This document shows positions 2,825-39,978 of a stretch of DNA of 64,000 bases, one piece after another. The notes under the pieces are model-generated. The model saw only the letters and a list, made by a program, of their open reading frames with translations. It had not been told where the DNA came from and did no database searches. This stretch comes from Escherichia coli. Its GTDB lineage: Bacteria > Pseudomonadota > Gammaproteobacteria > Enterobacterales > Enterobacteriaceae. Location: assembly GCF_030013595.1 (NCBI RefSeq), contig NZ_CP122771.1; one strand, 5' to 3'. The position numbers were made by a program, and so were the translations under genes. The stretch's first letter is position 1, and each line of letters starts with the position of its first letter.

Positions 2825-2958
2825 CTGGCCCTGAAGTTGTATATCAGCCGGCAATGCCGGCGGGCTTTCTGTATTCAAAATCTGCCTGTAAAACGAGTGC
2901 CCTGTGCGTGAAAAGGGATGGGCGGTAGCGTGTCAGAACATGTCGGGAGGAATATTCC

Positions 2959-3180
2959 GTGAGTGATGAAGCCGATGAAGCATATTCAGTGACAGAACAA
3001 CTGACCATGACAGGAATAAACCGGATACGCCAGAAAATAAATGCTCATGGTATTCCTGTTTATCTCTGTGAAGCATGCGGAAATCCTATTCCGGAAGCCC
3101 GGCGGAAAATATTTCCCGGTGTGATGTTATGTGTTGAATGTCAGGCGTATCAGGAAAGACAGAGAAAACATTATGCATAA
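2959..3180 (+). CDS. traR: TraR, DksA/TraR-family zinc-finger protein
   Basis: 73 aa, GTG start; C4 motif CEACGN...CVEC; position between traV and traC. Confidence 0.9.
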   Translation: MSDEADEAYSVTEQLTMTGINRIRQKINAHGIPVYLCEACGNPIPEARRKIFPGVMLCVECQAYQERQRKHYA

Positions 3181-3339
3181 GTCAGTCGCAGAACATAGTG
3201 ATTTAATTCCGGATGAACATGAGTGGATATTCAGAAAACAGAAATCTTTGTATATGCGCCGGGAAATGGCGCGTTAATTACAGGTATTCCCTTCATGGCT
3301 ACCGCATTTCTCGCTTTATTTTTCAACTAAGGAATTCAT

Positions 3340-5967
3340 GTGAATAACCCACTTGAGGCCGTCACTCAGGCGGTTAACTCCCTCGTCACAGCACTGAAAC
3401 TGCCTGACGAATCCGCAAAGGCCAATGAAGTTCTGGGCGAAATGAGCTTCCCGCAGTTCAGCCGTCTGCTGCCGTACCGTGATTATAACCAGGAATCCGG
3501 TCTGTTCATGAATGACACCACGATGGGCTTTATGCTGGAAGCCATTCCCATCAATGGGGCGAATGAGTCTATTGTGGAGGCGCTCGACCACATGCTGCGC
3601 ACCAAACTGCCGCGCGGAGTGCCGTTCTGCATCCATCTGATGTCCAGTCAGCTTGTTGGTGACAGAATTGAATACGGGCTGCGTGAGTTCTCCTGGTCCG
3701 GTGAACAGGCTGAACGGTTTAACGCCATTACCCGTGCCTATTATATGAACGCGGCAGCGACACAGTTTCCGCTGCCGGAGGGGATGAATCTGCCCCTGAC
3801 CCTGCGCCATTACCGGGTATTCTTCTCGTACTGTTCTCCCTCGAAGAAAAAAAGCCGGGCTGACATTCTGGAAATGGAAAACCTGGTGAAAATCATCCGG
3901 GCGTCGTTACAGGGGGCCAGTATCACCACACAGGCGGTGGATGCACAGGCCTTTATCGATATTGTCGGGGAGATGATTAACCATAACCCGGACTCCCTGT
4001 ATCCGAAAAGACGTCAGCTGGACCCGTATTCTGATCTGAATTATCAGTGTGTGGAGGACAGTTTTGACCTGAAAGTCCGGGCGGATTACCTGACGCTGGG
4101 CCTGCGTGAGAACGGCAGGAACAGCACGGCCCGCATCCTGAATTTCCATCTGGCCCGTAACCCGGAAATCGCCTTTCTGTGGAACATGGCCGACAACTAC
4201 AGCAACCTGCTGAACCCGGAACTGTCCATCTCCTGTCCGTTCATCCTGACGCTGACTCTGGTGGTGGAAGACCAGGTGAAAACTCACAGCGAAGCCAACC
4301 TGAAGTACATGGACCTGGAGAAAAAGTCGAAGACCTCCTATGCCAAATGGTTTCCGTCCGTGGAGAAAGAGGCGAAGGAGTGGGGGGAACTGCGTCAGCG
4401 GCTGGGCTCCGGTCAGTCCTCTGTCGTGTCCTACTTCCTCAACATCACAGCATTCTGCAAGGACAATAATGAAACGGCGCTGGAAGTGGAGCAGGACATC
4501 CTGAACAGCTTCCGTAAAAACGGTTTTGAGCTGATTTCACCGCGCTTTAACCACATGCGCAATTTCCTGACCTGTCTGCCCTTTATGGCCGGGAAAGGGT
4601 TGTTTAAACAGCTGAAAGAGGCCGGAGTGGTACAGCGCGCAGAGAGCTTTAATGTGGCCAACCTGATGCCGTTAGTGGCGGATAACCCCCTGACACCGGC
4701 AGGTCTGCTGGCACCCACCTACCGTAACCAGCTGGCGTTTATCGATATTTTCTTCCGGGGGATGAATAACACCAACTACAACATGGCGGTCTGTGGCACC
4801 TCCGGGGCCGGTAAAACCGGGCTGATACAGCCACTTATCCGCAGCGTGCTGGACTCCGGGGGCTTTGCCGTGGTGTTCGACATGGGGGATGGCTACAAGT
4901 CCCTGTGTGAGAACATGGGCGGGGTGTATCTGGACGGTGAAACCCTGCGTTTTAACCCGTTTGCGAACATCACCGATATTGACCAGTCAGCGGAGCGTGT
5001 CCGCGACCAGTTGTCGGTGATGGCCAGCCCCAACGGTAACCTGGATGAAGTGCATGAAGGTCTGCTGCTGCAGGCGGTCAGGGCCTCCTGGCTGGCTAAA
5101 AAGAATAAGGCGCGCATCGATGATGTGGTGGATTTCCTGAAAAACGCCCGTGATAACGACCAGTATGTAGAGTCACCGACTATCCGCAGCCGTCTGGACG
5201 AAATGATTGTGCTGCTTGACCAGTACACTGCTAACGGCACTTATGGCCAGTATTTCAACTCCGATGAGCCGTCCCTGCGGGATGATGCGAAAATGGTGGT
5301 GCTGGAGCTGGGCGGACTGGAAGACCGTCCGTCCCTGCTGGTTGCGGTGATGTTCAGCCTTATCATTTACATTGAGAACCGGATGTACCGCACGCCGCGT
5401 AACCTCAAGAAACTGAACGTTATTGATGAAGGCTGGCGTCTGCTGGACTTCAAAAATCACAAGGTCGGTGAATTTATTGAGAAAGGCTACCGTACGGCCC
5501 GCCGTCATACCGGTGCCTATATCACCATCACACAGAACATCGTCGACTTTGACTCTGATAAGGCCTCCAGTGCTGCCCGCGCGGCATGGGGTAACTCCTC
5601 CTACAAAATTATCCTCAAACAGAGTGCGAAGGAGTTCGCGAAATACAACCAGCTGTATCCGGACCAGTTCCTGCCACTGCAGCGCGACATGATTGGTAAG
5701 TTTGGTGCAGCCAAAGACCAGTGGTTCAGTTCCTTCCTGCTGCAGGTGGAAAACCATTCCTCCTGGCACCGTCTGTTTGTGGACCCGTTAAGCCGCGCCA
5801 TGTACAGCTCTGACGGCCCGGATTTTGAGTTTGTGCAGCAGAAGCGTAAAGAGGGGCTGAGTATTCATGAGGCAGTGTGGCAGCTGGCGTGGAAGAAGTC
5901 AGGGCCGGAGATGGCTTCGCTGGAAGCCTGGCTGGAAGAACATGAGAAATACAGGAGTGTGGCATGA
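3340..5967 (+). CDS. traC: TraC, VirB4-like T4SS ATPase
   Basis: 875 aa, GTG start; Walker A GTSGAGKTG; synteny. Confidence 0.95.
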   Translation: MNNPLEAVTQAVNSLVTALKLPDESAKANEVLGEMSFPQFSRLLPYRDYNQESGLFMNDTTMGFMLEAIPINGANESIVEALDHMLRTKLPRGVPFCIHLMSSQLVGDRIEYGLREFSWSGEQAERFNAITRAYYMNAAATQFPLPEGMNLPLTLRHYRVFFSYCSPSKKKSRADILEMENLVKIIRASLQGASITTQAVDAQAFIDIVGEMINHNPDSLYPKRRQLDPYSDLNYQCVEDSFDLKVRADYLTLGLRENGRNSTARILNFHLARNPEIAFLWNMADNYSNLLNPELSISCPFILTLTLVVEDQVKTHSEANLKYMDLEKKSKTSYAKWFPSVEKEAKEWGELRQRLGSGQSSVVSYFLNITAFCKDNNETALEVEQDILNSFRKNGFELISPRFNHMRNFLTCLPFMAGKGLFKQLKEAGVVQRAESFNVANLMPLVADNPLTPAGLLAPTYRNQLAFIDIFFRGMNNTNYNMAVCGTSGAGKTGLIQPLIRSVLDSGGFAVVFDMGDGYKSLCENMGGVYLDGETLRFNPFANITDIDQSAERVRDQLSVMASPNGNLDEVHEGLLLQAVRASWLAKKNKARIDDVVDFLKNARDNDQYVESPTIRSRLDEMIVLLDQYTANGTYGQYFNSDEPSLRDDAKMVVLELGGLEDRPSLLVAVMFSLIIYIENRMYRTPRNLKKLNVIDEGWRLLDFKNHKVGEFIEKGYRTARRHTGAYITITQNIVDFDSDKASSAARAAWGNSSYKIILKQSAKEFAKYNQLYPDQFLPLQRDMIGKFGAAKDQWFSSFLLQVENHSSWHRLFVDPLSRAMYSSDGPDFEFVQQKRKEGLSIHEAVWQLAWKKSGPEMASLEAWLEEHEKYRSVA

Positions 5968-6350
5968 GTTCAACGCAGAAACCCGCCGACGTCACGGCAG
6001 AACGACGCAGCCACTGGTGGTGGACGGTGCCGGGATGCCTGGCAATGGTGTTACTGAACGCAGCCGTCAGTTACGGCATTGTCAGACTGAATGCACCGGT
6101 GACTGTCGCCTTCAACATGAAACAGACCGTGGATGCGTTTTTTGACAGCGCCAGTCAGAAACAACTGTCAGAAGCGCAGTCAAAAGCCCTTTCAGCGCGT
6201 TTTAACACGGCACTGGAAGCCAGCCTGCAGGCGTGGCAGCAGAAACACCACGCGGTCATTCTGGTGTCGCCTGCTGTGGTACAGGGGGCACCGGATATCA
6301 CCCGGGAAATCCAGCAGGATATTGCCCGGCGAATGAGGGCGGAACCATGA
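5964..6350 (+). CDS. trbI: TrbI
   Basis: 128 aa with TM segment; overlapping stop/start with traC and traW. Confidence 0.8.
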   Translation: MSSTQKPADVTAERRSHWWWTVPGCLAMVLLNAAVSYGIVRLNAPVTVAFNMKQTVDAFFDSASQKQLSEAQSKALSARFNTALEASLQAWQQKHHAVILVSPAVVQGAPDITREIQQDIARRMRAEP

Positions 6351-30653: not shown

Positions 30654-31331
30654 ATGGAAGAAAATAATACGAGTACAGATAAAAACACCCTGACAGCCCT
30701 TATTGATTATGAAAACTGTGGCAGCCTGAAAAATATTTCCCTTGAGCAGTATGGGGAACTGATTATTTTTGTCGGGCCACAGCAGAACGTCGTTGTTCTT
30801 CCTGCAGACTCTTTTCCTGAAGGTGCGAGAATCACTATCAGGCAGGTGAGTGGTGTGTCCAGGAATAATGTCGATTTTCATCTTGTTCTGGAGCTGGGGC
30901 GGATAAGCTGTTGTGCAGCAGGGAAAGATAAAACATACCACATCATTTCATCGGATAAGGGATATGACGGTGTTATCAGGACGCTGAAAGAAGCCGGTAT
31001 TACCTGCATTCGTCGTGATGTACCGGAAAGTATTGCTGCTGCCGGTGAGTCTGGTGCAGACAAAAGTAACTGCCTGAAACAACCTTCTGTTCCTGAAAGT
31101 GATATCGTCAGCCGTTGGGCAGGAAAGCTGCAGCAGATAGCCGGCAGCGGAGCCGGTAATATGCCTGTGTCCGTCGAAACATTTAATAATTATTTAAAGT
31201 CACACATGCGTGACGAATGGAACAAAACCCGGGCAGTGGCGATAAGGAATGAACTGGTTCGTCGGGGAGTCACAGAAGTCAGGGAGAAAAAGATAATCTG
31301 GAAAAAGGCGAAAAAGGAGAATAAAGCATGA
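30654..31331 (+). CDS. NYN/PIN-like (LabA-type) nuclease-fold protein
   Basis: 225 aa; N-terminal IDYENC and later SSDKGYDGVIRTLKEAG resemble NYN signature positions; AT-rich promoter region upstream. Confidence 0.5.
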   Translation: MEENNTSTDKNTLTALIDYENCGSLKNISLEQYGELIIFVGPQQNVVVLPADSFPEGARITIRQVSGVSRNNVDFHLVLELGRISCCAAGKDKTYHIISSDKGYDGVIRTLKEAGITCIRRDVPESIAAAGESGADKSNCLKQPSVPESDIVSRWAGKLQQIAGSGAGNMPVSVETFNNYLKSHMRDEWNKTRAVAIRNELVRRGVTEVREKKIIWKKAKKENKA

Positions 31332-31647: not shown

Positions 31648-32241
31648 ATGGTGAAACTGATTATTTTTATTCTCATTGTTCTGATTATTGCAGCGTTACT
31701 TATCCGGATTATCCTCAGAAGTGTAAATCAGCATTCTCCTTTGCTGATGCAATTGCATGCGGCAGGTATACGGACCGGTGATGCAGAGCGAATACTGTCC
31801 AGCGGTGAATACTGGCAACGTCAGAAGACGCTGCTGACAGAAAGGGAAGTCAGTTTTATGAAAGGACTGTTCAGAATTGTGGATATGAAGCGGTGGTATC
31901 TGTGTCCGCAGGTACGGGTCGCGGATATCGTCCAGCTGAACGAGAATATCCGGCCACGATCACGCCAGTGGTGGCAGTTATTCAGAATGGTGTCTCAGTG
32001 GCATGTTGATGTGGTTATCGTTGAGCGGCGTTCGTTCAGTATTGTTGCAGCAGTAGAGCTGGATGATGCCAGCCATTTACGACCGGAACGCAGACGCCGG
32101 GATATTCTTCTGGAAGAGGTTCTGAGGCAGGCTGGTATTCCGTTGCTCAGAAGCCACGATGCCAGAAAACTGCTGCAGATGACCGGAGAATGGCTGAATA
32201 CAACAGGGGCTGATCAGCAGTCCCCGGAACATCGTAGCTGA
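31648..32241 (+). CDS. Membrane-anchored DUF2726-like (restriction-endonuclease-fold) protein
   Basis: 197 aa; N-terminal TM helix; HVDVVIVER...AVELDD resembles a PD-(D/E)xK-type core. Confidence 0.5.
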   Translation: MVKLIIFILIVLIIAALLIRIILRSVNQHSPLLMQLHAAGIRTGDAERILSSGEYWQRQKTLLTEREVSFMKGLFRIVDMKRWYLCPQVRVADIVQLNENIRPRSRQWWQLFRMVSQWHVDVVIVERRSFSIVAAVELDDASHLRPERRRRDILLEEVLRQAGIPLLRSHDARKLLQMTGEWLNTTGADQQSPEHRS

Positions 32242-32860: not shown

Positions 32861-33116
32861 TGTAAATAAAAAGCATACTTATTGGCTGGAGTGACGCCTT
32901 CGTGCTTCTGTAGTAAAAAGCGGGAAAGGCAGGTAATAGTCAGCAACAGGGAATGTGGTATTATCGCGGCGGGTGTCTGAGCCTTTCTGGTTCAGGCAAG
33001 ACGCAGGTACCAGAAATGCGAAGACCCCACTCGTTAATCCATTAACTCGTGAGGCCTGCATGAAGTACCTTAACACTACTGATTGTAGCCTCTTCCTTGC
33101 AGAGAGGTCAAAGTTT

Positions 33117-33266
33117 ATGACGAAATATGCCCTTATCGGGTTGCTCGCCGTGTGCGCCACGGTGTTGTGTTTTTCACTGATATTCAGGGAACGGTTATGT
33201 GAGCTGAATATTTACAGGGGAAATACAGTGGTGCAGGTAACTCTGGCCTACGAAGCACGGAAGTAA
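33117..33266 (+). CDS. srnB: Hok-family type I toxin (SrnB/PndA-like)
   Basis: 50-aa peptide MTKYALIGLLAVCATVLCFSLIFRERLCELNIYRGNTVVQVTLAYEARK; overlapping upstream leader ORF analogous to mok. Confidence 0.8.
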   Translation: MTKYALIGLLAVCATVLCFSLIFRERLCELNIYRGNTVVQVTLAYEARK

Positions 33267-33549
33267 GCTGCCGGGCGGGGACGGAAGTCCCCGCTTTCCG
33301 GAAGTGTGAGGTATTTCAGGGGCAGACACCCGACATGCCAGAAACAGCCGGTCCCGCCCGGGGCCGGCATCCTGGTTAAGGCATTTCCTGCTTTTCAGTC
33401 ATTTCATTATCAAAATCACATTAAACGGTCGTAATCAGACATGATTTGTGCGCCAACACAGATCTTCGTCACAATTCTCAAGTCGCTGATTTCAAAAAAC
33501 TGTAGTATCCTCTGCGAAACGATCCCTGTTTGAGTATTGAGGAGGCGAG

Positions 33550-33798
33550 ATGTCGCAGACAGAAAATGCAGTGACTTCCTCATCAGGTACAAAGCGAGCA
33601 TACAGAAAAGGTAATCCTCTGACGCTTGCAGAACGTCAGCAGGCATCCCTGGCAAGAAAACGAGCTACACATAAAGAACTCAGAGTGTTCATTCCTGCTG
33701 CGTTAAAAGCGCAATTGCAGGTGATGTGTGAAGCTGAGGGCGTTACCCAGGCTGAGATGATTGCCGAACTGATAAAGCAGAAGAGTGCTTTTAGCTAA
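33550..33798 (+). CDS. copB: CopB/RepA2 repressor of the RepFIIA replicon
   Basis: 82 aa starting [11 protein letters not shown], similar to R1 CopB; directly upstream of repA1. Confidence 0.85.
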
Positions 33799-33984
33799 CT
33801 AAAATGTAGCGACATCACATTCTTGCCTGTTTCTGGTGTGCGTGATAGATTGCTGATCGTTTAAGGAATTTTGTGGCTGGCCACGCCGTAAGGTGGCAGG
33901 GAACTGGTTCTGATGTGGATTTACAGGAGCCAGAAAAGCGAAAACCCCGATAATCTTTCTATGTTTGGCGACGAAGAAGATTAC

Positions 33985-34080
33985 CGGGGCCATCTAAAAA
34001 CCGTATAGCCAACAATTCAGCTATGCGGGGAGTATAGTTATATGCCCGGAAAAGTTCAAGACTTCTTTCTGTGCTCACTC
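33985..34080 (-). ncRNA. copA: CopA antisense RNA region (approximate)
   Basis: Position between copB and repA1 where CopA/CopT lies in IncFII replicons; boundaries not determined. Confidence 0.3.
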
Positions 34081-34108
34081 CTTCTGCGCATTGTAAGTGC
34101 AGGATGGT

Positions 34109-34966
34109 GTGACTGATCTTCAACAAACGTATTACCGCCAGGTAAAGAACCCGAATCCGGTGTTCACACCCCGTGAAGGTGCCGGAACACTGAAGTTCTG
34201 CGAAAAACTGATGGAAAAGGCGGTGGGCTTCACCTCCCGTTTTGATTTCGCTATTCATGTGGCGCATGCCCGTTCGAAGGGACTGCGTCGGCGCATGCCA
34301 CCGGTGCTGCGTCGACGGGCTATTGATGCACTGCTGCAGGGGCTGTGTTTCCACTATGACCCGCTGGCCAACCGTGTCCAGTGCTCCATCACCACGCTGG
34401 CCATTGAGTGCGGGCTGGCGACGGAGTCTGCTGCCGGAAAACTCTCTATCACCCGAGCCACCCGCGCCCTGACGTTCCTCGCAGAGCTGGGCCTGATTAC
34501 CTACCAGACGGAATATGACCCGCTTATCGGGTGCTACATTCCGACCGACATCACGTTCACACCGGCACTGTTTGCCGCTCTCGATGTGTCTGAGGTGGCG
34601 GTGGCAGCTGCGCGCCGCAGTCGTGTGGAATGGGAAAACAGACAGCGCAAGAAGCAGGGACTGGATGCACTGGGTATGGATGAACTGATAGCGAAAGCCT
34701 GGCGTTTTGTGCGTGAGCGTTTCCGCAGTTACCAGACAGAGCTTAAGTCCCGGGGAATAAAGCGTGCCCGTGCGCGTCGTGATGCGGACAGGGAACGTCA
34801 GGATATTGTCACCCTGGTGAAACGGCAGCTGACGCGCGAAATCGCGGAAGGGCGCTTCACTGCTAATCGTGAGGCAGTAAAACGCGAAGTGGAGCGTCGT
34901 GTGAAGGAGCGCATGATTCTGTCACGTAACCGTAATTACAGCCGGCTGGCCACAGCTTCCCCCTGA
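34109..34966 (+). CDS. repA1: RepA1 replication initiator (IncFII)
   Basis: GTG start giving [24 protein letters not shown]..., matching R100 RepA1. Confidence 0.9.
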
Positions 34967-34999
34967 AAGTGACTTCTCCTGAATAATCCGGCCCGCGCC

Positions 35000-35330
35000 G
35001 GAGGCATTCGCACGCCTGAAGCCTGTCAGCGAACAAAAAAGCAGCACTGCATACAAAAAACAATCTCATCATCCACCTTCAGGTGCATCCGGTTCCCCCT
35101 GTTTTTGATGCAAAACACCTCCCACAGACGGGTAATTTTGCTTATCCACATTTAACTGCAAGGGACTTCCCCATAAGGTTACAACCGTTCATGTCATAAA
35201 GCGCCAGCCGTCAGCGTTACAGGGTGCAATGTATCTTTTAAACACCTGTTTATATCTCCTTTAAACTACTTAATTACATTCATTTAAAAAGAAAACCTAT
35301 TCACTGCCTGTCCTGTGGACAGACAGATAT
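35000..35330. promoter_or_regulatory. Putative vegetative replication origin (oriR)
   Basis: AT-rich non-coding region immediately downstream of repA1, as in R1/R100; not confirmed by motif. Confidence 0.35.
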
Positions 35331-35878
35331 GCACCTCCCACCGCAAGCGGCGGGCCCCGACCAGAAACTATTTAGTTACAACACTCAAATACAACCACCG
35401 GAAGAACCCCGGTCCCGCGCAGAACTGAAACCACAAAGCCCCTCCTCATAACTGAAAAGCGAGGCCGCCCCCGCCCAAAGGGCGGGAACAACATCGCTTT
35501 TAATTATGAATGTTGTAACTACATTATCATCGCTGCCAGTTCTCTGGCTGGAAGTCCTCAGTACACGCTCGTAAGCGGCCCTCACGGCCCGCTAACGCGG
35601 AGATACGCCCCGACTTCGGGTAAACCCTTGTCGGGACCACTCCGACCGCGCACAGAAGCTCTCTCATGGCTGAAAGCGGGTATGGTCTGGCAGGGCCGGG
35701 GATGGGTAAGGTGAAATCTATCAATCAGTACCGGCTTACGCCGGGCTTCGGCGGTTTTACTCCTGTATCATATGAAACAACAGAGTGCCGCCTTCCATGC
35801 CGCTGATGCGGCATATCCTGGTGACGATATCTGAATCGTTATATACTGTGTATATACGTAGTAATGACGAGGTGATAA

Positions 35879-36148
35879 ATGGCACAGGTTAATATGAGTT
35901 TAAGAATCGACGCTGAACTGAAGGATGCTTTTATGGCCGCTGCAAAAAGCATGGACCGTAATGGCTCTCAGTTAATCCGGGATTTTATGCGCCAGACCGT
36001 TGAACGGCAGCATAATACCTGGTTCCGTGACCAGGTTGCGGCAGGACGTCAGCAACTCGAGCACGGCGATGTGCTTCCCCATGACATGGTCGAATCTTCT
36101 GCTGCTGCATGGCGGGATGAGATGAGCAGGAAGATTGCCGGTAAATGA
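35879..36148 (+). CDS. ParD/RelB-like ribbon-helix-helix antitoxin
   Basis: 89 aa; N-terminal MAQVNMSLRIDAELKDAFMAAA typical RHH; stop overlaps next ORF (ATGA). Confidence 0.6.
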   Translation: MAQVNMSLRIDAELKDAFMAAAKSMDRNGSQLIRDFMRQTVERQHNTWFRDQVAAGRQQLEHGDVLPHDMVESSAAAWRDEMSRKIAGK

Positions 36149-36309
36149 TGGAGATATTTTGGACCATGCTGGCCAGCCAGGACAGGAAGCGCATTCGTGA
36201 GTACATTGCGGAGCAGAACCTGATGGTCGCCATTGAACTGGACGAACGGATTGGTTATTTCGGACGAACGCACCGGCTTACGCCGGTTTTACATCTGTAC
36301 TACATGTAA
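36145..36309 (+). pseudogene. Truncated ParE/RelE-like toxin
   Basis: 54-aa ORF with ParE-like N-terminus (EIFWTMLASQDRKRIREYIAEQN) ending prematurely, about half the usual length. Confidence 0.4.
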
Positions 36310-36356
36310 CCTCATACACACATAAATGAGTAACATACTGATTAATATGGTAAATC

Positions 36357-37280
36357 ATGACGATTGAAAGCTTTTTTATTGGCACCCGCCGCTCTGATAA
36401 ACGTTACGGGCCTCAGAGCAAGGATATGCAGGTTTCTGAATTCATTTCTCTGATTTCTCCCCAAAATGCCCCTCATAAGGTTGTGTTACCTGATTTTACT
36501 GGTCTGGCAATTCAGCTTGATGCACAAATCAGGAACCAGTTTCATCAACTGAAAGAGGATGAGCACTTCCTTCGATATCGGCAGTTGTCGGAAAGGTGGT
36601 ATCAGGCGGACTCTATTAGTGACAGAAACAACCGCAGTAAGCGTTTTGAGAAGATCATGGATGACTCACTTGATTTTTTGCTTTACAGCCAAGACGTCAT
36701 GCCTAACATCAATCCAGATGATCTCCAATGGCATGATTACGAAAAGGCTAGCAGTAAGGGTAAAATGTACTGTGTAGCGCTTCTGTTCCATGTCATTGCA
36801 CGGGCTGCATATGAACCCGAATCTGTGGGTAAAGATCCGACACTTCCAGAATATTGCCGGTGGATGAAAAATTGGATAGAGAAAACATTAGGTCATGATT
36901 TTTTAGATAGAATGATGATCTATTGTGCGCTGTTTGCCCCAGCGTATTTTCCCGCGTTACAACGTCTGAGCGGAGAGAAAGAAACGCGTGATGTCCATGA
37001 ATTCCTGGCTGAGCATGTTCGCACTTTAGCTCAAAAAAATTCTTCAGAGGTAAATTATAGAGATCAACGGCAATTCACGTTTGGCTACACCATGTTCACG
37101 AAGCAACAATTTGAATTTCTGGGCATGATGCGCGATGTCCATTACCGGATTGATTGTATTGAACAGCTCCTTCTGGACCTTATAGAACGTAAGGTTGTGG
37201 ATTTCACTGATGCATCTGTTGCAGGCACGTGGATTGAGAAGCAAATTCAGCGGCTTGAATCAAACGACGTAAAGCAGTAA
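36357..37280 (+). CDS. Hypothetical 307-aa protein
   Basis: Long ORF with plausible RBS; followed by hairpin 37321-37345; no motif recognised. Confidence 0.45.
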   Translation: MTIESFFIGTRRSDKRYGPQSKDMQVSEFISLISPQNAPHKVVLPDFTGLAIQLDAQIRNQFHQLKEDEHFLRYRQLSERWYQADSISDRNNRSKRFEKIMDDSLDFLLYSQDVMPNINPDDLQWHDYEKASSKGKMYCVALLFHVIARAAYEPESVGKDPTLPEYCRWMKNWIEKTLGHDFLDRMMIYCALFAPAYFPALQRLSGEKETRDVHEFLAEHVRTLAQKNSSEVNYRDQRQFTFGYTMFTKQQFEFLGMMRDVHYRIDCIEQLLLDLIERKVVDFTDASVAGTWIEKQIQRLESNDVKQ

Positions 37281-37371
37281 CCCTCTGAACTGTAAATTGG
37301 GTAGTCAGATTTAATTATTGGCACCTGTTCATAGGTGCCACCTTTCTGAAAGAATGTATCCTAATTTTTCG

Positions 37372-37890
37372 ATATCCAAACTGACCCCTATTTTAGATGT
37401 TTCATTTATCACACCCTAAAGCTGAATATTTATCACAAGCCATTTTTACCGATAAATAACTAAGGCGATCAATGCCAATGGACTTACAATAATAAACAGA
37501 TTCTTTTTTGCTATTCAGGTTCGTAACACGGGGTCTGAAGTCCAATGGAACGAAAACGTACGTTAGTGAAGTAACTGTATGATATATCAAGACATAATGG
37601 ACATAGAAAAACGCCATCAAAACGGTGTCTTTTTAATCGAAAATTGGCACTTAACGGACGGCATTGTCTACTAATCGATTTTTAGACGATAATTTTCCTC
37701 TTACCGTACATTTTCGTACGGTTGGCCCTCAAACCCCGATTTGAACTCAATCGGATAACCTGAATGCAATACCGCAATGGCGATAATTTAAAAGCGATAG
37801 CCGTTGACGCAAAATCAATCCGTTACGCATCTCTATTGGTTAAATAATGCGCTTAACGTACAAAATTTTCCCATATCCAAACTGACCCCT
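37372..37890. repeat. 18-bp direct repeats atatccaaactgacccct (37372-37389 and 37873-37890) bracketing about 500 bp of non-coding DNA
   Basis: Exact repeat read from sequence; internal palindrome accgtacattttcgtacggt. Confidence 0.6.
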
Positions 37891-37899
37891 TAAAGGACA

Positions 37900-38235
37900 T
37901 CAACACGCATTCGGCGTTTTTTCTTGTCCAATTGTGATTTTCGTGAGCTCCGTATCAGTGAAATTTCCCTTTCCTGATTCTGTGTCAAAGTCACCAGGTT
38001 TGAACCGGTGTACATCCTGCCATATAGAGAAACAGGTGTGGCAGGTGACAGGCAGTTCTCCATCAGCCACCTTTTCGCAGTTTTCAATCAGTACCCGTTC
38101 CTTATTGTATTGTAAGTTATAACCACTTGTGCAAAGCGTTTCATACCCGTGAGCGCCTGTCACGATATGTGTGGCAATCCGTTCCCTGACTTTTCCGTTC
38201 ACTAATAACTGTTCACGTGTGGTGATCGTTCGCAT
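37900..38235 (-). CDS. Hypothetical small Cys-containing protein
   Basis: Minus-strand ORF with AGGAAG RBS before second ATG; contains CHTC; coding status uncertain. Confidence 0.3.
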   Translation of the reverse strand: MRTITTREQLLVNGKVRERIATHIVTGAHGYETLCTSGYNLQYNKERVLIENCEKVADGELPVTCHTCFSIWQDVHRFKPGDFDTESGKGNFTDTELTKITIGQEKTPNAC

Positions 38236-38329
38236 TCTCTTCCTCATCAGCTTTCCTGTAGAAGCCTCCTGACTATAAGGCTCCGGATATCTTACCCGCT
38301 CATTTTGGCTGGAGGTAGTGGTGGCGTCA

Positions 38330-38560
38330 GAGGATGAATTACTGACATTGTATATGAAGCTTTGAGTTTTTTCTGGATTTCATCAGTGTTTATCTTTATT
38401 TGTTCTTGTTTGTTCTCTTTTGTGCTGTTGGAGTCGGTTTTTGTCTGTGTTTTTCTTTATTTTTCCATTTGTGGCCGATATCAGGTCTTTACCGATACGT
38501 TGTTTTAGGTGATAATCGTTTTTGATCTCGTATTTTTCTAAAAAAATCCATTTTATTTAT
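38330..38560. promoter_or_regulatory. Putative parC-like centromere/promoter region
   Basis: AT-rich region with short reiterated motifs directly upstream of stbA. Confidence 0.3.
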
Positions 38561-38572
38561 GTGAGGTTCTAG

Positions 38573-39553
38573 ATGCGTATCTTTGTAGACGACGGCTCTA
38601 CCAACATCAAACTGGCCTGGGTTGAAGACGGTGCAGTGAAAACGTTAATTAGTCCGAATAGTTTTAAGCCGGAATGGTCTATGACGCTGCAGGGACTGAC
38701 TGATGCCACTGTACCCGCTTCCGCAAACTATGAGATTGATGGAGAAAAATACAGCTTTGATCAATTGAGTCCGGATGCAGTGCGCACCACAGAAACGCGT
38801 TATCAGTACAGCGACGTTAATGTGGTTGCTATTCATCATGCGTTGATGCAGTCAGGTATTGCTCCACAACCTGTTGATATTGTTGTGACTTTACCTTTAG
38901 GTGAGTATCTGGATGAGAACGATCAGCCAAATCTGGCTAATATCGAACGTAAGAAAAATAATGTCCGGCGAACTGTAACAGTTCAGGGGCGTGAAAACTT
39001 TACCATTCGTAAAGTCAGTGTCTTGCCTGAGTCCGTGCCTGCCGGTTTTGACGTGCTGAAAGATCTGAATGATCTGGAGTCGCTGTTGATTGTTGATATC
39101 GGTGGAACGACCCTTGATATTGCACATGTCCGCAGCAAAATGTCAGGTTTCACAAAAACCTATTGTGACCCCAAGACTGGCGTCTCCATCATTACTGAAG
39201 CAGTTAAGCATGCGATGGATGTGAATGTGAGTACACGAACCAGTTCTTATTTTGCAGATCGTCTAATCCAGGGCCGGGATGACAATGAATTCCTGACCCG
39301 TTATATCCCGAATGCAGAACAGCGTGAGCGGATCCTGACAGTATTACGTGACCGGGAAAAAAAACTGCAGCATCGTGTGGCGGATTCAGTAGGACGCTTT
39401 GCTGGTTTTACTCATGTTATGGTTGTTGGCGGTGGTGCCAGCCTTGTGGCTGGGGCAGTAAAAAAAGCGACAGGAGTGGGTGATAACCGTTTCTTTGTCA
39501 GTGACAATCCTCAGTTCGATCTGGTGTTGGGAATGATGGCAATGAAGGGATGA
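38573..39553 (+). CDS. stbA: StbA/ParM actin-like partition ATPase
   Basis: 326 aa; MRIFVDDGSTNIKLAW, DIGGTTLD and VVGGGA motifs as in R1 ParM. Confidence 0.9.
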   Translation: MRIFVDDGSTNIKLAWVEDGAVKTLISPNSFKPEWSMTLQGLTDATVPASANYEIDGEKYSFDQLSPDAVRTTETRYQYSDVNVVAIHHALMQSGIAPQPVDIVVTLPLGEYLDENDQPNLANIERKKNNVRRTVTVQGRENFTIRKVSVLPESVPAGFDVLKDLNDLESLLIVDIGGTTLDIAHVRSKMSGFTKTYCDPKTGVSIITEAVKHAMDVNVSTRTSSYFADRLIQGRDDNEFLTRYIPNAEQRERILTVLRDREKKLQHRVADSVGRFAGFTHVMVVGGGASLVAGAVKKATGVGDNRFFVSDNPQFDLVLGMMAMKG

Positions 39554-39978
39554 GTATGGCTGATAATCGTAAGTGCTCTTTTTATATTTATCCGGAACGA
39601 AATGCAGCTGATCGGGTGGCTGACAGGTTTCTTGAAAAATTGCCTCAGAAAGAACGTGGTCGGGCAATGCGGGCCATGATGTTGTGTGGTGCTGCATTGA
39701 TGAAGCAGGATGAACGATTGCCGTTCCTGATAGCTGAATTCCTGACAGACAGCACGTCTATGCAGGATATTCAACGAATTATCAGTAGTACGCTACCACA
39801 ACAGGAAAATGGTGAAGTCGTTCGTTTGCTGGAGGCATTTCTGCAGTCTGCTGGTAATAATGCAAAAGCGATCCTGCCTGCGGTTGATTCTGCTACGCAA
39901 GAAATATCTGCTCCAGTCGATCAGAATCTCCTGGAAACAAGAAACAACATTAAGAACTTGTTTCCGGATGATGAATAA
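39550..39978 (+). CDS. stbB: StbB/ParR partition adaptor
   Basis: 142 aa overlapping stbA stop; similar organisation to R1 ParR. Confidence 0.8.
   Translation: MSMADNRKCSFYIYPERNAADRVADRFLEKLPQKERGRAMRAMMLCGAALMKQDERLPFLIAEFLTDSTSMQDIQRIISSTLPQQENGEVVRLLEAFLQSAGNNAKAILPAVDSATQEISAPVDQNLLETRNNIKNLFPDDE

Follow-up and report, generated by a model that had tools for sequence, protein, structure and literature searches.

A yacAB toxin-antitoxin copy with an intact antitoxin gene and a truncated toxin gene beside an IncFII origin in Escherichia coli

The gene pair next to the replication origin in this stretch of DNA (64,000 nucleotides, hereafter the window) is yacA/yacB, a type II toxin-antitoxin module that adjoins the origins of IncF and IncI-type plasmids, and its toxin gene lacks the 3' half. 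We read the pair as a decayed copy of yacAB in which a single old rearrangement cost yacB its 3' part, leaving the locus dead as an addiction system, and we give this reading a probability of roughly 0.9. The window comes from an F-like conjugative plasmid whose replicon genes run in the order RepA2/CopB, CopA RNA, RepA1 and then ori. On IncFII, IncFIC, and IncI/K-type plasmids, yacAB lies just downstream of the replication origin, and in the window a coupled, overlapping pair is likewise found 3' of the origin, with repA, the CopA RNA, and ori upstream. The features of the region are as follows.

30654-31331: PIN7-domain protein, between finO and the replicon
31648-32241: DUF2726 protein with weak restriction-endonuclease-like similarity, between finO and the replicon
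33000-33127: sok RNA (Rfam scan)
33550-33798: RepA2/CopB, upstream of yacA
33936-34024, minus strand: CopA antisense RNA (Rfam scan)
34097-34966: RepA1, the IncFII initiator, upstream of yacA
35557-35854, no strand: first copy of the origin-distal repeated element, after the IncFII ori/Ter region and before yacA (BLAST paralogues)
35844-35863, no strand: palindrome TACTGTGTATATACGTAGTA, putative YacA operator (inverted-repeat scan)
35879-36148, plus strand: yacA, an intact 89-aa antitoxin with an N-terminal ribbon-helix-helix (ORF list, profiles, 96.6% identity to partnered YacA)
36145-36259, plus strand: yacB remnant, start codon(s) and residues 1-37 of the 92-aa toxin (alignments, tblastn, RefSeq pseudogene call)
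36145-36309, plus strand: 54-aa ORF, the yacB stump with a read-through tail (ORF list; stop codon 36307-36309)
36260-36314, no strand: 55-nt internal fragment of a variant-B origin-distal element, source of the tail and stop codon of the 54-aa ORF (multiple alignment, both borders visible)
36357-37280, plus strand: 307-aa gene (ORF list; 5' region always joined to the yacB junction in database records)
38573-39978: ParM/ParR, downstream of the yacAB remnant

A megablast search with 35600-36500 matched more than 5,000 plasmids, and both ORFs coincide with genes that PLSDB and RefSeq name YacA (antitoxin) and YacB (toxin) of a type II toxin-antitoxin system. The initial annotation had taken the pair to belong to a toxin-antitoxin family, and it does, with a toxin of the RelE/ParE superfamily. 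As that annotation described, the intact antitoxin ORF (35879-36148) is coupled through ATGA to a toxin-like ORF of 54 aa: the yacA stop codon TGA occupies 36146-36148, and the ATG of the 54-aa ORF begins at 36145. In the NCBI annotation, YacB starts at the next codon (36148), so that the overlap reads TGATG and the product has 53 aa. The YacA of the window shares 96.6% identity with YacA from an intact pair, the range for orphan versus toxin-partnered YacA being 96-100%, and an identical protein, WP_001395444.1, carries the YacA annotation in RefSeq-derived records.

The family labels first given to the two proteins fare differently. The profile matches of YacA all lie under the cut-off (RHH_1, E 0.011; RelB, E 0.032; TIGR02384 RelB/DinJ, E 2e-5), its residues 27-77 weakly resemble PaaA2 (E 0.22), and no ParD family model from Pfam or NCBIfam is among its matches; "ParD-like" is thus merely a loose analogy for a protein properly called YacA. 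For the toxin, "ParE-like" is a fair label, since, among solved structures, intact YacB comes closest to ParE2 of E. coli O157 (PDB 5cw7; E 8.5e-8, residues 3-92 aligned). Upstream, the 29 nt preceding yacA do not differ from the corresponding stretch of an intact yacAB operon, and a palindrome with the core TATATAC-tgt-GTATATA stands 16 nt before the yacA start. We regard this palindrome as a putative ribbon-helix-helix operator for YacA, overlapping the promoter, through which YacA would most likely still repress its own transcription.

Full-length YacB (92 aa) aligns with the whole of the Pfam ParE_toxin model (PF05016), at 63.6 bits over positions 1-89 of 89; it also scores 33.1 bits against TIGR02385 RelE/StbE, for which the cut-off is 27.9. 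The 54-aa ORF of the window falls short of the PF05016 cut-off (17.5 against 23 bits), and its match is confined to model positions 1-32 of 89, so that the description of a type II pair with a truncated toxin was well founded and no full-length toxin with a complete RelE/ParE domain is encoded here. By tblastn, only YacB residues 1-37 align, to window 36148-36258, and neither a second YacB-like sequence nor the missing 3' half of yacB was found within the 64-kb window, which rules out a second yacB copy there. Within those 64 kb, then, an intact antitoxin stands without a functional cognate toxin.

Where does the toxin gene end, and how? Across yacA and the first 111 nt of yacB, the window is 97.6% identical over 381 nt to the intact module of pHNAH4-1, and it stays nearly identical to intact yacAB (that of pHNAH4-1 and a second copy on NZ_CP122686.1) until base 36259, beyond which the sequences are unrelated. 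A frameshift, suggested at first as a possible lesion, is ruled out, as no reading frame regains similarity past 36259. Based on alignment to full-length YacB, the lesion is instead a deletion or replacement junction between bases 36259 and 36260, with the first 37 codons kept. The final 16-17 codons of the 54-aa ORF are accidental read-through into foreign DNA. Owing to a 10-nt indel, this tail of 16-17 aa becomes one of 26 aa in another frame in pCoo, and the product counted from the NCBI start has 53 aa in alleles of the window type but 63 aa in those of the pCoo type; a tail whose length and frame differ between allele types is evidently without constraint at the protein level. In RefSeq, the 111 nt that remain of yacB are a pseudogene marked "incomplete; missing C-terminus," while several GenBank submissions label the 54-aa ORF a RelE/ParE toxin instead.

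The DNA beyond the junction belongs with a second sequence in the window. The 15-mer ACCGGCTTACGCCGG occurs exactly twice in the sequence, as had been noted, but at 35730-35744 and 36272-36286 rather than at 35728 and 36277, positions that were off by 2 and 5; 0 of 100 dinucleotide-preserving shuffles held any match to the repeated 15-mer. Similarity around it reaches ~50 nt once a 10-nt indel is allowed. The first copy sits inside the hairpins ACCGGCTTACGCCGG and CGCCGGGCTTCGGCG of the ~300-nt origin-distal element, with the 15-mer as hairpin core. Other IncF plasmids carry paralogues of this element, which BLAST aligns at 72-87% identity: pEA36_4 of E. albertii has three and pRM13752 has one.

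pEA36_4 (retrieved segment L008), 1380-1630, 3155-3426, and 5802-5972: three element copies
pRM13752 (retrieved segment L009), 2842-3094: diverged "variant B" element copy

Of these four copies outside the window, three have a small toxin-antitoxin-like cassette right on their 3' side, in one case a higBA-like pair, in another an antitoxin-like gene with a truncated ParE-like ORF, and in another a ribbon-helix-helix plus ParE pair; after the third copy in pEA36_4, no toxin-antitoxin-like gene was identified. Within pEA36_4, positions 3598-4045 of the same segment hold an 87-aa antitoxin-like gene followed by a ParE-like ORF that stops after 64 aa and adjoins a 379-aa PIN-domain gene, a second truncated ParE-like toxin 3' of a repeat copy. 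A 46-aa ORF (35666-35806), listed as a hypothetical protein in some RefSeq plasmids, spans the element in the window; it is probably not a gene, because element copies differ by a 10-nt indel inside it.

The second 15-mer lies in a fragment of the diverged variant-B element, and the suspicion that the repeat betrays a rearrangement was sound. Multiple alignment resolves two junctions, one between 36259 and 36260 and the other between 36314 and 36315; the segment 36260-36314 is wedged between the yacB stump and the 307-aa gene, and sequence specific to that gene starts past the second junction. The post-junction DNA of pCoo matches the pRM13752 variant-B element over 66 nt with 95.5% identity. 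Relative to pCoo, the fragment in the window is short of 10 nt (GCTTCGGCGG), a loss that limits the perfect match to 15 nt. At the breakpoint, GGATTGGTTAT in yacB and GGACTGGTGAT in the variant-B flank match at 9 of 11 positions, and an equally good chance match arises somewhere between yacB and the flank in nearly all shuffles. The breakpoint is therefore compatible with a microhomology-mediated deletion, but the match is suggestive only and statistically not compelling.

The origin-distal element itself may mark the boundary of a module, or it may be a primase site of the G4 type ("G site"). In the "G site" of R1/R100, reportedly described by Masai and Arai in 1989 as a G4-type primase priming site, a stem-loop directly adjoins, on the 5' side, a CTG at which primase starts on the template strand, some 400 bp downstream from oriR; no published sequence of the site was found in the literature searched. 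On the minus strand, the hairpin ACCGGCGTAAGCCGGT followed by ACTG resembles phage G4 stem-loop I plus CTACTG. The overall similarity of the element to G4 oric, with a score of 26 against a shuffle mean of 20.8 (sd 3.8), is not above shuffles; its single-stranded folding z-scores of -1.3 and -0.9 are significant on neither strand; the CTG is absent from the variant-B copies; and BLAST found no relatives of the element in the phage collection. An Rfam scan of 33000-38500 detected CopA and sok only, with no RNA family in the repeated element. Between the IncFII origin and the element, the sequence gaATGTTGTAACTAc at 35508-35522 holds the Tus-binding Ter core GTTGTAAC; R1/R100-type replicons are known to have replication terminators.

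We searched PLSDB with a 151-nt probe across the yacB junction. Its yacB half matches 1,904 plasmids, and the match runs across the junction in 55 of them (~3%), all of which cover 35850-36356 completely at 94.6-100% identity. Among RefSeq complete E. coli genomes, yacB sequence is present in 1,260 of 5,426 and the junction in 69 of those 1,260 (5.5%). The ~97% of plasmid alleles without the junction continue past 36259 as full-length yacB, and those sampled encode 92 aa. Hosts of the junction are E. coli, Shigella flexneri, Salmonella, and E. albertii, and its replicons are typed IncFII, IncFIA, IncFIC, and IncI-gamma/K1. The window, pCoo, pETEC_73, five further plasmids that were read, and 7 metagenome contigs share one and the same junction sequence, GGTTATT joined to TCGGACGAAC, the contigs having been found by a probe for the second junction; the recurrence of this junction across plasmids, genomes, and contigs means that the allele arose once. 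Judging from a divergence of up to ~5%, the junction is old, and it has moved between plasmid backbones. Every record with the 5' region of the 307-aa gene also holds the yacB junction (55/55 in PLSDB and 7/7 metagenome contigs), which bears out the link drawn in the initial annotation between the truncation and the DNA that carries that gene.

Neither PLSDB nor the metagenome contigs yielded an ancestral layout in which intact yacB is followed by a full variant-B element and the 307-aa gene, and the mechanism of the deletion is for this reason one that we infer. The kind of ancestral layout needed is illustrated by pRM13752, in which a decayed yacAB is followed by an exonuclease gene, the variant-B element, and another toxin-antitoxin pair. 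In that plasmid (L009, 774-1272), an IS3-family insertion truncates yacA at its 5' end and yacB is damaged internally, an independent decay which indicates that yacAB erodes repeatedly and in different ways. A plasmid from a pig ETEC isolate, NZ_CP122686.1 (L001, 6280-9777), is identical to the window across the junction and carries an intact yacAB 3 kb away, in an insertion that begins at an IS91 copy and splits the 307-aa gene; orphan yacA and a functional pair therefore coexist on one replicon.

In total, these observations are consistent with a model in which one ancient rearrangement removed yacB codons 38-92, that is, the beta-sheet core and C terminus of the RelE/ParE fold, and joined yacB at codon 37/38 to a fragment of a second, diverged origin-distal element, with the 307-aa gene next. 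We predict that the stump is probably still translated through its coupling to yacA. As a partial fold followed by 16-17 unrelated codons, it should be incapable of acting as a toxin, and the locus would thus no longer be able to cause post-segregational killing. YacA would be intact because the toxin must go first when a toxin-antitoxin pair decays, loss of the antitoxin first being lethal. On this reading, plasmid maintenance rests on the hok/sok and ParM/ParR systems in the window.

Is a leftover all that yacA is? The gene is intact in the junction-bearing PLSDB plasmids, 55/55 of which have an annotated CDS at yacA, and in 6 metagenome contigs; of the junction-linked alleles translated, 14/14 are intact. 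Its pairwise pN/pS is 0-0.39 among six junction-linked alleles, and the gene has stayed intact at up to 5.4% nucleotide divergence across the block. From a purely neutral relic one would expect less conservation, and "mere leftover" may therefore be an incomplete description. One could propose, as the initial annotation did, an anti-addiction role in which orphan YacA is selected to neutralise YacB from competing or incoming yacAB plasmids and so shields the host when such a plasmid is displaced. Encounters would be frequent, given that the yacB probe matches nearly a quarter of complete E. coli genomes (1,260/5,426); orphan YacA hardly differs from the partnered form; the block is present on several replicon types; and on at least one plasmid the orphan and an intact yacAB occur together. 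Yet the variable residues of YacA (A54E, H62R, and I86V) are polymorphic in toxin-linked alleles also, so that recombination with functional yacAB could yield the same low pN/pS. The pattern looks like purifying selection but may come from either source. The allele is moreover in the minority among yacB-bearing plasmids and yacB-positive genomes alike, and an antitoxin that outlives its toxin is expected without selection. We consider an anti-addiction role plausible but improbable. Its extended form, in which the block of yacA, yacB stump, and 307-aa gene is a selected "immunity cassette" against YacB killing that spreads between IncF and IncI-type plasmids by recombination through the origin-distal element, a portable junction for small toxin-antitoxin cassettes beside origins, strikes us as rather unlikely.

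The 307-aa gene invites another explanation of why yacA persists, namely, that this gene was captured under the YacA-repressed promoter and that yacA is retained as its regulator. The gene lies on the same strand and starts 208 nt beyond the stop codon of yacA; wherever its 5' region is seen, yacA and the yacB stump stand upstream; and a consensus scan called no strong terminator between the genes. There is nonetheless a short hairpin between them (36271-36290), with a 6-bp G+C stem followed by TTTT, which folds at roughly -10 kcal/mol (z -1.5). The 307-aa protein has homologues, 52-67% identical to it, in unrelated contexts without yacA, on IncHI2, IncR, and IncF plasmids of Enterobacter, Klebsiella, and Citrobacter, and IS elements often interrupt the 307-aa gene where yacA remains intact; capture of this kind is very unlikely. 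The protein itself has no match in Pfam, NCBIfam, PADLOC, PHROGs, or PDB, and AlphaFold2, run on a 4-sequence alignment, returned an all-helical model (mean pLDDT 51, pTM 0.37) too poor for a fold search. The stump might also be credited with a function of its own, as a non-toxic co-repressor or YacA stabiliser built on the N-terminal helical hairpin of YacB. The coupled start is kept, and the 37 homologous codons differ mostly synonymously, but with just 0-5 differences per pair; the varying length and frame of the tail (53 versus 63 aa) leave the product as a whole unconstrained, the ORF falls below the Pfam cut-off, and a 37-residue piece of a ~90-residue alpha/beta fold would hardly be stable, all of which makes such a function highly improbable. 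An artefact of sequencing or assembly, or a native short toxin, would have nothing beyond the bare ORF in its favour. Both are refuted: one junction recurs in 55 plasmids sequenced independently of each other, in 69 E. coli genomes, and in 7 metagenome contigs, and the ~97% of alleles without it continue as a 92-aa gene; 54 aa is not the native form.

Decay of the yacAB module at the locus is ordinary and already known, in that RefSeq flags the allele and an orphan YacA has been published for the pINV plasmid. The intact yacAB of pHNAH4-1 (NC_024955.2) shares with the window its position ~900 nt downstream of repA, the upstream region, and the palindrome; there the toxin has 92 aa, whereas here codons 38-92 are replaced by foreign DNA. 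On Shigella flexneri pINV/pWR100, an intact orphan YacA (Orf176) stands beside an inactivated YacB and the system is regarded as non-functional (PMC5658099, PMC7354431, PMC9455713). The pINV toxin gene suffered a 2-nt insertion that creates a premature stop, in contrast to the 3' deletion or replacement in the window, and the two are independent inactivations of the same module. Shigella YacA is also reported to be secreted by the type III apparatus, for which the window locus has no counterpart. PaaA2-ParE2 of E. coli O157:H7 (PDB 5cw7, 5cze, and 5czf) supplies the nearest structure to intact YacB, but similarity is low and the system is a different one; the window keeps only the part that aligns to ParE2 residues 4 to about 40. 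Among orphan-antitoxin or anti-addiction cases is the chromosomal ccd of Erwinia. Caulobacter, with a parD beside a parE pseudogene, offers another orphan antitoxin (PMC7354431). In both, an antitoxin that could counteract a related plasmid toxin stands without a working cognate toxin, and the likeness to the window locus is one of analogy only. No experimental paper on the activity of E. coli YacAB was found in the literature searched.

Decay of yacAB on this plasmid has minor practical consequences. The 54-aa ORF is better annotated as a yacB pseudogene, as in RefSeq, and this plasmid should not be counted as having a working YacAB addiction system. Where yacAB alleles serve for plasmid typing, the schemes need to heed a truncated allele that recurs across plasmids. 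We speculate that if orphan YacA does neutralise incoming YacB, the locus would be a natural and widespread example of plasmid-borne anti-addiction.
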